The position numbers were made by a program, and so were the translations under genes. Shown piece by piece: positions 2,548-36,621 of a DNA stretch of 64,000 bases; within the stretch, counting starts at the first letter, position 1; the number at the start of each line of letters is the position of its first letter. Source of the DNA: a virus (Duplodnaviria; Caudoviricetes). Where the stretch lies: positions 32,001 to 96,000 of the IMG/VR virus record IMGVR_UViG_3300019124_000001. One strand, written 5' to 3'. The notes below the pieces were generated by a model, which had not been told where the DNA came from, did no database searches, and worked only from the letters and a program-made list of their open reading frames with translations.

Positions 2548-2880
2548 ATGGCAACACTTATCGTAAATCCTGACAACACTCGTATGCGCCGTGTGGAGAG
2601 TCATCAGCCGTTTCTGGCTGATTTGGACGAAATGCGCAAGTATGGCGTAAAAGCGTTCGTCCTGTCGTGGCTGATCGCACACTTCGATCATAGTGGCGAA
2701 AATATGAGAGATTTTCATTGGACAAAGTTGGGCGAAGAAACGGAAGTTCTTAACTGTCAGGGCTTCTATGAATGGGACGAACGATTTACTTTGTCTTACG
2801 TGGCTCTGACCATCGACGGATTCTTGATCGCCGTCATGCAAGACGCAAACGACGATGAAGTTAAATACCAAATCAACTAA
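2548..2880 (+). CDS. Hypothetical phage protein
   Basis: Promoter, RBS and terminator cassette. Confidence 0.8.
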   Translation: MATLIVNPDNTRMRRVESHQPFLADLDEMRKYGVKAFVLSWLIAHFDHSGENMRDFHWTKLGEETEVLNCQGFYEWDERFTLSYVALTIDGFLIAVMQDANDDEVKYQIN

Positions 2881-31931: not shown

Positions 31932-32048
31932 GTGAAACACTCACAGAATAAAAGGGGGATTTCTTTAGAAGGTGCTATAGCATTAACAATTATCGCATTT
32001 GGGGCGGCGTTCATCATTGCCTTTGTAAGAGTATTACTTGGAGCTTAA
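31932..32048 (+). CDS. 38-aa single-TM peptide; not in ORF track
   Basis: GGAGTG RBS, GTG start; MKHSQNKRGISLEGAIALTIIAFGAAFIIAFVRVLLGA. Confidence 0.55.
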   Translation: MKHSQNKRGISLEGAIALTIIAFGAAFIIAFVRVLLGA

Positions 32049-32219
32049 TTCCGTCCTGCTACATAATGACAACTGCATTAACGTCTGTAAGTCAATATTT
32101 AGAGTGAATTGCTTGTAAAATTTTTTCATTCAACAGGCAATTGACTAGAGACAAATAATGTCGGGTATGTTATAATATAAGTAGGCAAGACACTACAAGG
32201 GGGAAGTGAGTGATGGAGC

Positions 32220-33197
32220 ATGGTAAACTTGGTTATTCCGTTTAACAATAAAATGAAAGAGCGTTTCTTGGGTGATATGAATTTGAGCGAAGAGACAAAG
32301 TACTACTACAATCGACTCTTCCTCAAATCTAAATTCGCTGAAGAAACGCTGAACAAAGACCTTGCATACTTCAATGTAATCGAATTGGAAACGGTTTTAT
32401 ACAGCTTGAAATCCGCAACACTGAATGCTTGCATCAAAGAAGCAGGAATCATTAAAACATACATCAATTGGGCACTCGAAAAAGGATTGCGACAAGATGG
32501 AGTCAATCCCGTACTTATGCTAAAAGAAGATGACTACAGGAAGTTCATACCTGACAAGAACATCAACTTCACCTACAACGATGTGTTTGACGTAATGATC
32601 CCTCCCGTATATAATGCTAGTGACGCCATCTGCATCCTCCTTCCGTTCGAGGGCTTGTCACTGGCAGAGATGGTCAATCTGACTAAATACGATGTGGATT
32701 GGAACAATAGAGTCTTGATAGTTCAAAAAGATCGTAATGACGAAAGAACCAAACGAGTGGTACAGGTAGAGCAGAAAACTATAGACTTGATCGCCAAGAG
32801 CATCGAAGAGAGCGAGTATTACAAGAAAAACGGATATTATCGCTTCAATCCAACCCCACGAGTGAAACCTACTCTTGAGCTTGCAAGTAATGACTTCATC
32901 GTTAGAGCGGCACAAACCTACGGCGATAACGAAAATGCTCCTGCTGACACTCAAACTGTAACAAGAAGGCTCAAAATGCTAAAAGAAGAATTAGATCAAC
33001 CAGAATTGAAGTTTCAAAATCTTTCCCGTTCCGGTTTGTTATGGTACGCAAAGAAACTGATGGATGAACGTGAAGGGAGACTGGACACGGAAGCGTACAA
33101 GATGATTGGCAAAAAGTTTGATGTTGAACCGACATATGCGCAACTCAGGCGTACAGTGAATGAAGAAGAAGTGAACAAGCTCTACAATAGGAGGTAA
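32220..33197 (+). CDS. mrpR: MrpR/YopR-like phage master repressor (tyrosine recombinase fold)
   Basis: 325 aa; FN...KE.FL, E..LNKD...F, YI.WA, L.FEG, Y.KKNG, RSG.L..A, NEEEVNK.Y as in SPbeta YopR. Confidence 0.85.
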   Translation: MVNLVIPFNNKMKERFLGDMNLSEETKYYYNRLFLKSKFAEETLNKDLAYFNVIELETVLYSLKSATLNACIKEAGIIKTYINWALEKGLRQDGVNPVLMLKEDDYRKFIPDKNINFTYNDVFDVMIPPVYNASDAICILLPFEGLSLAEMVNLTKYDVDWNNRVLIVQKDRNDERTKRVVQVEQKTIDLIAKSIEESEYYKKNGYYRFNPTPRVKPTLELASNDFIVRAAQTYGDNENAPADTQTVTRRLKMLKEELDQPELKFQNLSRSGLLWYAKKLMDEREGRLDTEAYKMIGKKFDVEPTYAQLRRTVNEEEVNKLYNRR

Positions 33198-33201
33198 CAA
33201 C

Positions 33202-33549
33202 ATGGCACGTACTGTCATTCATGATCAAGACGTAAGGATCAAAAGGGATGTATTTGAAATGGAGTTTGACAAGCAAGGGTTTCGCACAGCGAAATCCTTT
33301 CTTGAATATTTTATTGAGGATGTTGGTTTGAAAATAGGTTGGAAGACTCTTTACCAAATGATTTACGAAAAGCCTAACAAGGTAGCATGGAAACTCCATT
33401 ACGCTATGTTGTTAGCAGATTATTTGAATCTAAAGGTGGAGGCGCTATTCGAGTTTTATGATGTAGATATCGAAGCGGAAGCGCAAGCGAGAGAAGACAA
33501 AAACGCTAAGATACGAGAGTCGAAAGAACGCAATAGTAATAAAAACTAA
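33202..33549 (+). CDS. Small XRE/HTH-like protein coupled to mrpR
   Basis: IGWKTLYQM...AMLLADYLNLKVEALFE. Confidence 0.6.
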   Translation: MARTVIHDQDVRIKRDVFEMEFDKQGFRTAKSFLEYFIEDVGLKIGWKTLYQMIYEKPNKVAWKLHYAMLLADYLNLKVEALFEFYDVDIEAEAQAREDKNAKIRESKERNSNKN

Positions 33550-33592
33550 AACAAGTACCCTAAAATAAGGGTACTTGTTTTAGTTTAGCTGG

Positions 33593-33622
33593 TTGACATA
33601 CATAGTTGTTATATGTTATAAT
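33593..33622 (+). promoter_or_regulatory. Promoter of the HTH-TPR gene with inverted AACAACTATGTAT box in the spacer
   Basis: TTGACA-TACATAGTTGTTATATGT-TATAAT. Confidence 0.75.
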
Positions 33623-33678
33623 ATTGACCGAGGACATTATTACAGTAAAGGGGTGTATAATATGAAGGGGTGTAAAAG

Positions 33679-34704
33679 ATGATCGACAAGGAAAGTTACA
33701 TAGAACGCATTAAGGAGATTATGGACGAACAGGGCTTTACGTCCGTTGAAGCGTTTTCTGAGGTCTGTGGGGTAAACAAAGAATACATTAGGCAAATCCT
33801 GAAAGGCTCTCGTGACATCGGAGAGCTTGAAGCGAAAATAGCCTATGGATTAGGGGTGACTGTTCGTAGATTGCGAATGGAAGACACTCGCGAACAAATA
33901 ATAAAGGCTGAAAATGATTTACTGTTGCCTGAAGTCAACATTCAAGAACTTATTAAATCTGTAAATGTCCTCTACAAAAAAGCAATTGGCATTACAGAGA
34001 AAGCAGACATGCTCTATCTTTTATCCAGTGTGTACAAACATGGTAGACTTTGGAACGAGTGTGTCCAAACGTGCGAAGATGCTCTGCAACTACTGATAAG
34101 ACAGAAGAAGGCAAAGAGTATGAGCAAGATAGGGAAAAGACCTGATGGAGATCGTATCCGTAAGGTAATTTCTCGTTATCTATTCGCACTCAAATCTTCG
34201 CAACGTCTACATGAATATGTTGCCCTAATCGAAAAGTATGAGCAATATTTTGATGTAGATGCTAGAGCGAAGTCTGAGCTTTTGTATAGGAAAGGTAACG
34301 CAAAGTTTCGCCTGAACTACTGGAAGGAAGCGGAGGATTCGTATAACAGCGCACTCGAAGGATTTCGTGTTTTAAATGACAAAGAGTATGAATTTCGTAT
34401 CCTAGTCAATATCGCAATGATCTATGCGGAACGTGAGTTTTATGTAACAGCGATTGATATTTTAAACGAAGCGGAAAAGTTGTTGCAATATGAAACAGCA
34501 TTTGATTCTTTAATGAATTATCAATACGTTGTTGCAAAAATTCTATTTGTAAATGGATCAGATTTAGAAACAATCGAAAAAAGACTTGACAACGCTATGG
34601 GCAGATATGGTAAACTTGAAGGGAAGCCTATGTTGATTTACCATATATTAAAACAAGGCGTTGATCTGGCACTCAAAAGGCAGTTGATCCAAGCCGTCTT
34701 TTGA
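33679..34704 (+). CDS. HTH-TPR transcription regulator (RRNPP-type peptide receptor)
   Basis: N-terminal XRE HTH; TPR helices (LLYRKGNAKFRLNYWKEAEDSYNSALE, ILVNIAMIYAEREFYVTAIDILNEA); followed by a small secreted peptide gene. Confidence 0.85.
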   Translation: MIDKESYIERIKEIMDEQGFTSVEAFSEVCGVNKEYIRQILKGSRDIGELEAKIAYGLGVTVRRLRMEDTREQIIKAENDLLLPEVNIQELIKSVNVLYKKAIGITEKADMLYLLSSVYKHGRLWNECVQTCEDALQLLIRQKKAKSMSKIGKRPDGDRIRKVISRYLFALKSSQRLHEYVALIEKYEQYFDVDARAKSELLYRKGNAKFRLNYWKEAEDSYNSALEGFRVLNDKEYEFRILVNIAMIYAEREFYVTAIDILNEAEKLLQYETAFDSLMNYQYVVAKILFVNGSDLETIEKRLDNAMGRYGKLEGKPMLIYHILKQGVDLALKRQLIQAVF

Positions 34705-34739
34705 TGTAACAGCCAACAGAAAGGAGAACAGTGAACATT

Positions 34740-34907
34740 ATGAAAAACATCAAGAACAAAATCTTTCTTGCAGGAATCATTCTTGCGATTGGAGCTACCG
34801 TAGGTTGCTCTAAAAATGCAATGCCGTTTGACCCCTACGAGCCTGACGGCAAAGAGGTGTCGGTGTTTGATCCCTACGAGCCAGACCCCATTGTGTTTAA
34901 CGGTTAA
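34740..34907 (+). CDS. Putative signalling propeptide, 55 aa (alternative GTG start 34731); not in ORF track
   Basis: MKNIKNKIFLAGIILAIGATVGCSKNAMPFDPYEPDGKEVSVFDPYEPDPIVFNG; AAAGGAG RBS; signal peptide; FDPYEPD twice. Confidence 0.85.
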   Translation: MKNIKNKIFLAGIILAIGATVGCSKNAMPFDPYEPDGKEVSVFDPYEPDPIVFNG

Positions 34908-34916
34908 ATATCGTTA

Positions 34917-34959
34917 AAAAAATGCCGAGGAATGTGTCGAAACATTCCTCGGCATTTTT
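34917..34959 (+). terminator. Strong terminator after the peptide gene
   Basis: AAAATGCCGAGGAATGT-GTCGAA-ACATTCCTCGGCATTTT. Confidence 0.85.
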
Positions 34960-35079
34960 CTTCACAATCTATCAAAATTTTTGCGATTTTTGACTTGACG
35001 ATCAATTTTCGCAATTTCCTCTCCGAAACTATAGAAAAAAGTCATAATAGATGGTATTATGAAATTACCACATGAAAGA

Positions 35080-35093
35080 CGAACGCTAGTTCG
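35080..35093. promoter_or_regulatory. LexA (DinR/Cheo) SOS box
   Basis: CGAAC-GCTA-GTTCG, intergenic, about 20 bp downstream of TGG-TATTAT. Confidence 0.65.
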
Positions 35094-35179
35094 GTAACAG
35101 AGATAGACAATAGTTGCCAACATTCTACAGAACAGTTTTCGTCAAACACACAACTTCATAGTACAAACTTCCAAGGAGA

Positions 35180-35572
35180 GTGCTTTTCATGTTAATGGGT
35201 GATCTGAAATTGTCTCAAACGAACCGTCGAATCCTTTCCTATCTTGTACAGAACGAACATGAGGAAGCCGAGTTTAGGGAATGGCATCTTGGTTTTAACC
35301 GATCTATTCTCTTTGATATTATGGCTTTCCGCGCTGTAAAGGTCGAGAGGGCGTTGGCGAAGTTGTCACTCTCTGATTTTGTACAAGCCTTTGAAAAAGG
35401 CAACAGAGAAGAAAAAAGGGAAGTTTTGCAACAGGTCTTTCAACAATGGGTAACAGATACTGACTTGGACGATCTGACAGAGCGAATTACGAACGGTCTG
35501 ACGCTCGAAGCGCTCTATGAAGAACGCCGCCTGAAGCCAAGTGACTTCCTCCACTCCCTACTTAGGGGGTAG
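35180..35572 (+). CDS. Hypothetical protein, possibly SOS-controlled
   Basis: AAGGAG RBS; downstream of LexA box. Confidence 0.7.
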   Translation: MLFMLMGDLKLSQTNRRILSYLVQNEHEEAEFREWHLGFNRSILFDIMAFRAVKVERALAKLSLSDFVQAFEKGNREEKREVLQQVFQQWVTDTDLDDLTERITNGLTLEALYEERRLKPSDFLHSLLRG

Positions 35573-35681
35573 ACACTTGGTAAAATTATTCTTGACAAAC
35601 AATAACTATGTTTGTTAGAATGCTATCAAGGGGCAAAACTCATGTAACAGCAGAGTCATATAATAGCAGGAGGAATCTATT

Positions 35682-36320
35682 ATGGGCTTATGGAGAAAAA
35701 TGCTTAAATTCAAAACAAAGGTGTTGGAATGGGCGCTTAGGTCTAGTATTCCAAACACACAAAGCAAGATAAAGGGGCGAGAGGTGGAGTTTCTTGGTGG
35801 CAATCAATGGCTCCACGTCTATCGCTTCAAAACGGGAAAATATGCTGGTTATACTTTCTCGTATGAACCAAAGTGGGCTGATATCGGAGTTGGAATTCTG
35901 CCATATCGCAAAAAACACGATGGACAGATTGAATATTTGGCGGTCAATGAAATTCGACCAGTTCACGGGAACAATTTTAACCTCTACGCAATTACTGGCG
36001 GGTGGGATGATCGCAGTATTTCTACTAAAGGATGTGCTGTCAAGGAAGTCAAGGAAGAAACTGGGTACTCTGTAACAGAGAGTGAACTATTTTTCCTTGG
36101 TACTATCAATAATAACAAAATGTCAACTGGAACTATGTACCTGTATGCTGTTGATTTGACAGGCGCGGAAAAGGGTTCTAAAGTCACTGACGGAAGCAGA
36201 GTGGAGCTTGATGCTTATGCAAGTTGGATTGATTTAGATACCCTAATTACAGATGGTGACAATTTGCTGGCGAAGATGTACCTACTTCTAAGACATCGTA
36301 TGGAAAATGGGAAATACTAA
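35682..36320 (+). CDS. Nudix hydrolase (ADP-ribose pyrophosphatase-like)
   Basis: GGWD......CAVKEVKEETG Nudix box. Confidence 0.85.
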   Translation: MGLWRKMLKFKTKVLEWALRSSIPNTQSKIKGREVEFLGGNQWLHVYRFKTGKYAGYTFSYEPKWADIGVGILPYRKKHDGQIEYLAVNEIRPVHGNNFNLYAITGGWDDRSISTKGCAVKEVKEETGYSVTESELFFLGTINNNKMSTGTMYLYAVDLTGAEKGSKVTDGSRVELDAYASWIDLDTLITDGDNLLAKMYLLLRHRMENGKY

Positions 36321-36390
36321 TACGCACAATAATTTGTGCGTGTTTTAACTTCTGACAAACAACAACTATGTATAATAGGAGAGAGAAAAC

Positions 36391-36621
36391 ATGCAGAAAC
36401 CTACGCTTGACCAATTGCAACGTATCGCATACTGCGAAGAAGTTTTGTTGCGTCAATTCAATGGAGAATCCAGAGAGGATGCTGAAATTTGGCTACGGTT
36501 GAATTGGGGCGAAGCTAGGAGATTGGATTATTTGCAACGGGTAAAACGTAACAGGAAAGGCAAGGCGTATTGGAAAGGTGTACCGCAACAACAGCGCTTG
36601 ATGGGATATCAAGTTTTTTAG
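36391..36621 (+). CDS. Hypothetical protein
   Basis: RBS. Confidence 0.55.
   Translation: MQKPTLDQLQRIAYCEEVLLRQFNGESREDAEIWLRLNWGEARRLDYLQRVKRNRKGKAYWKGVPQQQRLMGYQVF

Follow-up and report, generated by a model that had tools for sequence, protein, structure and literature searches.

A probable two-copy propeptide with a lipobox-like cysteine in a Tsamsa-like phage: a candidate RRNPP-type signalling module

A 55-codon open reading frame (ORF) in a large phage genome raises the question of whether its product is a secreted peptide signal and, if so, whether that signal is carried twice on a precursor tethered to the membrane by a lipid. The ORF, P0001, lies at positions 34740..34907 (+ strand) of a 64,000-nucleotide (nt) stretch, called the window below, which covers positions 32,001 to 96,000 of the IMG/VR virus record IMGVR_UViG_3300019124_000001. 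This record, of a giant Tsamsa-like soil phage, is 163,787 bp long, with direct terminal repeats and 40.4% G+C. An original prediction, made from the letters of the window, had described P0001 as a multi-copy and possibly lipid-anchored propeptide of an RRNPP-type receptor. P0001 is indeed very probably such a propeptide: it adjoins a protein with helix-turn-helix (HTH) and tetratricopeptide repeat (TPR) regions, P0002, and its core matches the peptides encoded after distant relatives of that receptor. It is likely that receptor and propeptide together form a signalling module, and the whole favoured account, in which a phage-borne RRNPP-type module uses a lipid-anchored propeptide, stands at about an even chance.

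The ORF encodes 55 amino acids (aa) plus stop and translates as MKNIKNKIFLAGIILAIGATVGCSKNAMPFDPYEPDGKEVSVFDPYEPDPIVFNG. Its residues run in the order MKNIKNK, I8-G22, Cys23, SKNAMP, FDPYEPD, GKEVSV, FDPYEPD, PIVFNG and stop. The putative signal peptide (34740..34805, + strand), read directly from the translation, consists of the n-region MKNIKNK, with a charge of +3, and the uncharged h-region I8-G22. A ribosome-binding site, AAAGGAG (34720..34726, + strand), stands 13 nt ahead of the ATG at 34740; its distance to another possible start, the GTG at 34731, is 4 nt. Use of the GTG would add three residues (MNI) to give 58 aa and leaves the picture unchanged, and at either length the product falls within the 10-100 aa size range of RRNPP propeptides.

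P0001 carries a repeated core, FDPYEPD. Copy 1 (residues 30-36; 34827..34847, + strand) is written TTT GAC CCC TAC GAG CCT GAC, and copy 2 (residues 43-49; 34866..34886, + strand) is written TTT GAT CCC TAC GAG CCA GAC. The two are identical in 19 of 21 nt and both differences (GAC/GAT, CCT/CCA) are synonymous, as the original prediction had noted. In a repeat search the two copies came up as a direct repeat of 22 nt, with 91% identity and a spacing of 39 nt. The core repeat is more than chance: among 20,000 composition-preserving shuffles of the 32-residue pro-region, none contained an exact 7-residue repeat and the longest, of 6 residues, occurred once.

The silent differences bear on selection. 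Of the 63 possible single-base changes in the core, 11 are synonymous, which puts the chance of two random changes both being silent at about 0.03. Around the copies the nucleotide match is at chance level (6 of 18 positions after them, 4 of 12 before). In small numbers, 2 of about 3.7 synonymous sites have changed against none of about 17 non-synonymous sites. Silent-only changes in the core, together with randomised flanks, suggest that the 39-nt tandem duplication is old and that only the seven core residues have been held constant. The amino-acid sequence of the core thus appears to have been kept by selection, and on this point the original prediction is borne out.

A different outcome was obtained for the proposed third, degenerate unit at the end of the ORF. 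VFNG and the start of copy 2 share no more than V-F (GTGTTT, 6 nt), a match at chance level, and the claim is rejected as unsupported. VFNG is better read as part of a hydrophobic C-terminal tail, PIVFNG (34887..34904, + strand), that follows the core as in the relatives, for example WRPPEP-LSIVFYQ; comparable hydrophobic tails are present in the relatives, and V-F alone is in common with the unit start. With two exact 7-residue copies, P0001 qualifies as a multi-copy propeptide, the copies being equated with the mature peptide by way of the family core. Candidate ligand peptides are FDPYEPD, PFDPYEPD, FDPYEPDG, YEPDPIVF and FDPYEPDPIVFNG.

The family core was defined from distant relatives of the receptor. 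The search, at a cut-off of E <= 1e-8, covered 401 genomes sampled from the class to which Tumebacillus lacus belongs. Receptor matches were found in 8 of the 401, all in one family (8 of its 9 genomes) and in none of the other 392, and the genes are multi-copy, with 7 matches in one genome (G001). These receptors are 25-38% identical to P0002, and the HTH+TPR family that they make up looks like an uncharacterised, lineage-restricted peptide-signalling family. For 17 of the 19 distant receptor genes, the ORF directly 3' encodes a product of 40-51 aa that has a signal peptide; the two exceptions are a gene interrupted by the end of its contig and a gene with a paralogue behind it. Eighteen propeptides were compared, since one locus adds a second, upstream one. 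At locus L024 (G001:C22:39104-42319) the receptor lies between two propeptide-like ORFs, an upstream one of 57 aa (ending FSPPDPSITRYS) and a downstream one of 44 aa (ending TIPPNPIIADKK).

Of the 18 propeptides, 13 have a motif of the form Px[DEGN]P or P[DE]P at 6-10 residues from the C-terminal end; of 284 further small ORFs at these loci, 8 do. The narrower form [FW]xPx[DE]P was found in 3 of 18 versus 1 of 284, the examples being WRPPEP-LSIVFYQ, FIPPDP-SIVLNDKN and FSPPDP-SITRYS. FDPYEP fits this narrower form. In copy 2, P-Y-E-P is followed by the tail DPIVFNG, which places the copy at the distance from the C-terminus that is usual in the family. Because of this likeness to the family core, P0001 is taken as the cognate propeptide, the core as the selected part of it and copy 1 as the addition. 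The comparison of motifs makes it fairly likely that the FDPYEP core is the signal or part of it, and copy 2 plus tail is inferred to be the ancestral, canonical unit, to which copy 1 was added.

It is an evenly balanced question whether both copies are productive. A narrower explanation, which is independent of how the signal peptide is cleaved, holds that only the C-terminal unit is the signal (copy 2 plus tail, for example within YEPDPIVFNG), and that copy 1, followed by GKEVSV, serves as a spacer, a processing handle or a different second message. This would fit the single core of the relatives, which always lies 6-10 residues from the C-terminus and is followed by a hydrophobic tail, such as only copy 2 has. 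It would also agree with NprX, whose active heptapeptide SKPDIVG is internal to the C-terminal part of its precursor and takes in residues after a Pro-Asp core (PMC3763537), and with the propeptides carrying dissimilar peptides that are on record in the part of the RRNPPA survey used here (PMC9765709). Against it, the core of copy 1 is intact despite chance-level flanks, which argues for selection on copy 1 itself, and one distant propeptide is also duplicated: at L025 (G001:C12:361459-364761), the ORF 2630-2785 (- strand) holds two exact ETIPIGG copies with 7 residues between them. Duplication therefore recurs in this receptor-peptide family, and the explanation that confines the signal to copy 2 is considered rather unlikely.

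The receptor side of the pair is P0002 (33679..34704, + strand), a 341-aa receptor-like protein whose size lies within the 250-500 aa range of TPR receptors in the RRNPP signature. It is encoded on the same strand as P0001, with a gap of 36 nt (34704 to 34740), inside one promoter/terminator unit. An AlphaFold2 model built on a 20-row alignment reached a predicted local distance difference score (pLDDT) of 88.2 and a predicted template modelling score (pTM) of 0.83; it is all-helical, with an N-terminal bundle followed by a helical repeat. In structural comparison (Foldseek, VIA-align) the model matched RapI with a Z score of 18.4, NprR with 17.9 and 17.7, RapH with 17.2 and PlcR with 16.6. 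When the profile of the receptor alignment A1 was compared with solved structures, RapJ (4.8e-9) and NprR (chains 5dbk and 4gpk, 1.1e-8 and 3e-8) appeared after many generic TPR proteins. A search of the PDB with the single P0002 sequence returned nothing significant, and the predicted complex of P0002 (alignment A1) with propeptide residues 24-55 scored 0.02 against a mark of 0.32 and counts for nothing.

Several results weigh against reading the pair as an RRNPP-type module. The Pfam matches of P0002 are under their cut-offs, TPR_12 with E 2.6e-6 and 28 bits (cut-off 30.1) and HTH_3 with E 0.0032. The structural matches do not rise above those of generic TPR proteins, of which LGN has a Z score of about 20; since the quorum-sensing receptors are not above such matches, the predicted structure is informative on the TPR fold of P0002 and not on its family. 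The NCBIfam AimR model NF038310, which needs more than 70 bits, gave no match to P0002 at E <= 0.01 and none across the 163.8-kb genome, and membership of P0002 in AimR is rejected on that basis. No close homologue of receptor or peptide was present in the collections searched, so that conservation of the cysteine and co-variation can be compared only at a distance. The core motifs were defined post hoc from the data, and their counts describe resemblance and are no blind test.

These points bear on a broader alternative, that the ORF is no communication peptide. Its product would then be a small lipoprotein or a secreted peptide of the phage, perhaps serving at the surface or in exclusion, whose gene stands beside a TPR regulator by chance. 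Such a reading gains from the below-threshold family matches of the receptor and from the orphan status of receptor and peptide in databases. It has difficulty with the order of a receptor followed by a small secreted ORF in 17 of the 19 distant relatives, together with the shared core motif, and with the same strand, the 36-nt gap, the single promoter and the single terminator of the phage pair. The five features of the published RRNPP signature, as set out in the part of the source drawn on, are found here at the level that can be tested, the Sec signal being a putative one (PMC10075063). A non-signalling role is accordingly thought improbable, and the signalling module is retained. The receptor lineage most likely falls outside the named RRNPPA subfamilies, as judged by the models used.

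The question of the lipid anchor turns on Cys23, encoded at 34806-34808 within the lipobox-like segment T-V-G-C23 (34797..34808, + strand). The canonical lipobox is [LVI][ASTVI][GAS]C. Four lipobox patterns known from the literature were applied, namely a PROSITE-PS51257-like pattern, G+LPPv1, G+LPPv2 and the DOLOP core. P0001 has a positive n-region, an uncharged h-region and a cysteine within about residues 15-35; its Lys-rich start and 15 uncharged residues satisfy the n- and h-parts of G+LPPv2, and it passes both this pattern and the PROSITE-like one. Directly after the 15 uncharged residues comes the cysteine, flanked by Val (-2) and Gly (-1) on one side and by Ser (+2) on the other, and the signal peptide is short, at 22 residues. 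Both permissive patterns were passed by 9 of 1,682 six-frame ORFs of the genome, the other 8 being short, mostly Cys-rich frames.

The stricter tests gave another answer. Because of Thr at -3, P0001 fails G+LPPv1 and the DOLOP core, and the canonical lipobox is absent. The likeness to a lipobox that the original prediction described therefore holds for the two permissive patterns and lapses for the two strict ones. Conservation of the cysteine in homologues was likewise not found: none of the 18 distant propeptides passes G+LPPv2, a weak test given that only very distant relatives could be compared. The PROSITE-like pattern is passed by 1 of the 18, in which the hydrophobic run continues past its Cys. 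A cysteine occurs somewhere in the hydrophobic stretch of 9 of the 18, so that a cysteine at the boundary can arise without function and that of P0001 could be incidental.

The same data can be explained by the same module with a soluble pro-peptide, in which signal peptidase I (SPI) cuts near G22/C23/S24, as in the precursors of Phr, NprX and AimP, and the cysteine is incidental. The failed strict patterns and the counts among the distant propeptides speak for this explanation, and TVG|C, VGC|S and GCS|K all fit the rule of small residues at -3 and -1. The base rate points the same way, as 92.3% (2,523 of 2,734) of the RRNPPA propeptides with a prediction are Sec/SPI in the survey results drawn on here (PMC9765709). 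It is opposed by the absence of an Ala-x-Ala site beyond Cys23, the sole later Ala (A27) having Lys at -3, and by the short, lipoprotein-like signal peptide. Moreover, two lipobox patterns that only 0 and 1 of the 18 relatives pass are satisfied by the residues where the h-region ends (Gly at -1, Cys at +1, Ser at +2). Cleavage by SPI is thus a substantial possibility, held with less than even confidence. A lipid anchor with Sec/signal peptidase II (SPII) processing is marginally favoured for P0001, an estimate reached by weighing a literature base rate of about 8-15% against the lipobox pattern results. Neither Lsp (PF01252) nor SPase I (PF10502) was found in the phage genome, and maturation would rely on the host either way. 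A literature search found no report of experimental lipidation of an RRNPP propeptide with a C-terminal signal; the mention of a lipobox in PMC7430634 concerns NlpI and is not relevant.

A lipobox-like cysteine also brings to mind the enterococcal sex pheromones sensed by PrgX, and the signal of P0001 could by analogy be the last 7-8 hydrophobic residues before Cys23, the C-terminal part being a small lipopeptide with another role. In the enterococcal case the ligand precursor, that of cCF10 or cAD1, is a genuine lipoprotein on which Lgt and Lsp act, according to the part of the source used (PMC7117660), which resembles the lipid reading of P0001. The likeness ends there: the pheromone is the tail of the signal peptide of a large lipoprotein, which is encoded on the chromosome and unlinked, and the system requires Eep and PptAB. 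In P0001 the conserved, duplicated and family-shared feature sits in the C-terminal part, after the Cys, the relatives have no lipoboxes, and the TPRs of the receptor are canonical and resemble those of Rap and NprR, with no PrgX-like fold ranking. A signal derived from the signal peptide is very improbable, and the C-terminal core remains the preferred signal.

Set against known systems, the two traits of P0001 are less exceptional than first supposed. The original prediction had called a lipid-anchored, multi-copy propeptide unusual for RRNPP systems. In the RRNPPA survey of Felipe-Ruiz et al. 2022 (mBio), as far as it is drawn on here, 2,734 propeptides have a SignalP call, of which 2,523 are Sec/SPI and 211 are Sec/SPII (PMC9765709). 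Fifty-nine of the SPII propeptides lie on mobile elements (39 on plasmids, 19 on prophages, 1 on a phage-plasmid), about twice the expected share. In the AimR, NprR, PlcR and Rap subfamilies a single propeptide is reported to hold as many as six mature-peptide copies, sometimes with one copy deviating, and the manner in which internal copies are cut out is described there as unknown (PMC9765709). SPII prediction and multiple copies are exactly the two traits at issue in P0001. Sec/SPII propeptides are also kept in a "relaxed" class by RRNPP_detector, which allows up to 100 aa owing to intragenic duplications, in the account of the tool used here (PMC10075063). Neither an SPII prediction nor a multi-copy propeptide alone is unusual for the RRNPPA class, and P0001 is a well-formed but ordinary example of described traits. 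The survey results used here cover AimR, NprR, PlcR, Rap, Rgg, ComR and PrgX, and P0002 falls in none of these by the models applied; the SPII calls are predictions, with no experimental proof of lipidation in the same part of the survey (PMC9765709).

Among individual systems, NprR-NprX of the Bacillus cereus group shares with the phage pair an HTH+TPR receptor followed by a small propeptide, putatively Sec-exported in the case of P0001, and NprR is among the nearest solved RRNPP proteins to P0002 in both the profile and the structural comparisons. In the survey portion consulted, all 17 atypically long NprR-linked propeptides examined were repeated (PMC9765709). NprR consists of an HTH and about nine TPRs. 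The differences are that the profile match of the 341-aa P0002 to NprR spans about 85 residues, only part of the TPR region, and is no better than that of generic TPR proteins, that the present module is phage-borne, and that its core is P-Y-E-P-D (in FDPYEPD), acidic and proline-rich, and not KPD.

Arbitrium, AimR-AimP, of SPbeta-like phages is a second point of reference. AimP typically ends in a short C-terminal hexapeptide, as P0001 does not. The resemblance lies in a phage HTH+TPR receptor, a secreted propeptide encoded downstream and a lysis-lysogeny region with MrpR/YopR, as described in the part of PMC10516654 drawn on; unlike arbitrium, the present receptor has no match to the AimR model, and the phage is Tsamsa-like with direct terminal repeats. 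Rap-Phr systems with duplicated signals (Even-Tov et al. 2016, as cited in the relevant parts of PMC9765709 and PMC10075063) likewise show intragenic duplication of the signal-coding part, which has been proposed to raise dose or allow divergence. In contrast to the phage pair, Rap proteins have no HTH, and the signals in Phr, 5-6 residues long, stand at the C-terminus or close to it. In the Tumebacillus-family pairs the receptor is directly followed by a 40-51-aa secreted ORF, paralogues occur per genome and the core motif is shared, but the receptors are about 50-75 aa longer and chromosomal, the signal peptides are of SPI type, and the copies are single with one exception. The Alo systems of Paenibacillaceae, with AloP of 32-50 aa in the description used (PMC7425212), have the same architecture and are likened to the phage pair by architecture alone.

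From these comparisons a mechanism can be proposed, in which the export, the type of cleavage, the mature ends, the binding and the link to lysogeny are all inferred. The precursor would be exported by Sec, and its signal peptide would be cut at G22/C23, somewhat more probably by Lgt/Lsp at the permissive lipobox than by SPI. The product would be a 33-residue pro-peptide, anchored by diacylglycerol at the outer face of the membrane. Cleavage by host exoproteases may next free a short peptide with FDPYEP(D), or two of them, copy 1 acting as added dose. These peptides would re-enter through Opp, bind the TPR groove and alter DNA binding by the HTH, so that a lysis-lysogeny circuit that includes an MrpR-like repressor could be biased.

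The receptor and propeptide genes form a self-contained unit with its own consensus promoter and a hairpin on each side. The left border is a perfect 19-bp hairpin (33543..33586; 100% complementary, 6-nt loop), which closes the upstream unit and is terminator-like on the - strand. The promoter is of the sigma-A type (33593..33622, + strand; TTGACA, 18-nt spacer, TATAAT), matches in 12 of 12 positions with a TG extension, and is the best of 18 sites in 32000-36500. The right border is a terminator-like hairpin plus T-run (34918..34959, + strand) with 21-nt arms that are 95% complementary. Before the receptor gene, a tandem 17-nt duplication of ribosome-binding site plus ATG (33648..33682, + strand; 88% identical, spacing 17) has the copies AAGGGGTGTATAATATG and AAGGGGTGTAAAAGATG. 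From the ATG of the first copy runs a mini-ORF of six codons, MKGCKR; its TGA overlaps the receptor ATG, and it could encode a leader peptide or serve translational coupling. On the 3' side of the cassette, at 34975-35030 and before a 127-aa gene, inverted hexamers TTGCGA ... TCGCAA lie around TTGAC-type -35-like boxes; this pair is a candidate receptor operator.

The left backbone neighbour of the cassette is a 325-aa gene with a tyrosine-recombinase fold that resembles MrpR/YopR (32220..33197, + strand). Its product matches Pfam MrpR_N_CB at 1.9e-18 (67.3 bits, cut-off 27) and phrog_5830 at 1.2e-66, and by tblastn it was found in 73 phage records, the best at 33.4% identity (Bacillus phage vB_BanS_Nate). 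The matching records are mostly 140-170-kb siphoviruses of the Bacillus group (vB_BanS_Nate, pW2, PBC2, vB_BcoS-136, Geobacillus virus E3), and in them the gene is mostly annotated as integrase or site-specific recombinase. It may instead act as a repressor in phages of this group. In SPbeta the part of master repressor of the prophage falls to MrpR/YopR (PMC10516654, in the part used), and Tsamsa, the reference of the group, is temperate according to the part of PMC3903500 drawn on.

Two further backbone genes frame the insertion site. The 115-aa gene at 33202..33549 (+ strand) is a homologue of Nate gp101 (BLASTP E 8e-13 to NATE_101), and the 127-aa gene at 35189..35572 (+ strand) agrees with Nate gp102 (NATE_102) in position and length, with a similarity (E 0.095) that falls short of significance. 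Both Nate and vB_BcoS-136 have the order recombinase-like gene, a gene of about 105 aa and a gene of about 125 aa, with no receptor between, and a tblastn search of 50,697 phage records with the receptor found none. Because the flanking genes occur without a receptor in these phages and gp101 is homologous, the 1.6-kb cassette looks like an insertion in a conserved backbone, beside a likely lysogeny repressor. It is a bolder proposal, and a speculative one at present, that a receptor subfamily other than AimR, beside an MrpR-type repressor, decides between lysis and lysogeny in a giant temperate siphovirus by way of a lipid-tethered, two-dose pro-signal.

Close relatives were sought widely. 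Word-based searches of 5.8 billion proteins returned P0002 alone for the receptor (among 1,521 candidates) and P0001 alone for the propeptide. An exhaustive HMMER search of 1.84 billion representatives gave 137 matches at E <= 1e-3, mostly generic TPR proteins, together with HTH+TPR proteins of 300-420 aa at E 1e-9 to 1e-3. The best non-self match, P0003, is full-length (335 aa, 28% identity, E 4.9e-22); it is a singleton, encoded by a lone Logan contig of 3,977 bp. Scans of IMG/VR with P0002, P0003 and the receptor alignment A2, and of Joint Genome Institute (JGI) metagenomes with A2, found no relatives. In the ESM Atlas the best scores were 0.86-0.88, including one cluster automatically named "Lipoprotein"; scores below 0.9 are leads only.

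The coding pattern of the core was searched for as well. Back-translated FDPYEPD occurred at 14 loci in IMG/VR, none of them a signal-peptide ORF, and at at least 120 loci in metagenomes, where 27 of those listed lie in frames of up to 110 residues; no related peptide gene was seen among the matches listed. One candidate, L047 2-241 (- strand), has a lipobox ASGLGC with FDPYEPD about 11 residues on. Its frame is incomplete where the contig stops, its neighbour is a 905-aa ORF judged unrelated, and it was set aside as coincidence.

The cassette stretch is also present in four DNA runs of one study, three of which may be its source; no RNA run is listed. Over 33550-35000 no variant letters or indels were reported in these runs, which is informative on presence only, as contigs drop rare variants. 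In the biocrust-metagenome run X4 the mean word depth is several thousand, compared with 50-465 in the other three runs. Its assembly is in many short pieces across the receptor gene, and one contig piece, which spans 34624-34938 without difference, covers the whole propeptide gene. The pattern of run X4 may represent a phage bloom with microdiversity, or overlapping unitigs.

If confirmed, the module would extend peptide communication to Tsamsa-like giant siphoviruses of the Bacillus type. If the tethered reading is true, release of the signal would be gated at the cell surface by exoproteases of the host and not by secretion alone, which may give a delay or a "private first, public later" signal, a behaviour not known from experiments on any RRNPP system. 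With 55 aa, one Cys and two copies, P0001 would offer a compact test case for whether SPII-predicted propeptides are lipidated, for the effect of tethering on the range and timing of signalling, and for how the internal copies of a multi-copy precursor are cut out. The shared Pro/acid core ties the phage peptide to an uncharacterised receptor-peptide family found in one family of soil Bacilli, and it provides candidate ligands for both.

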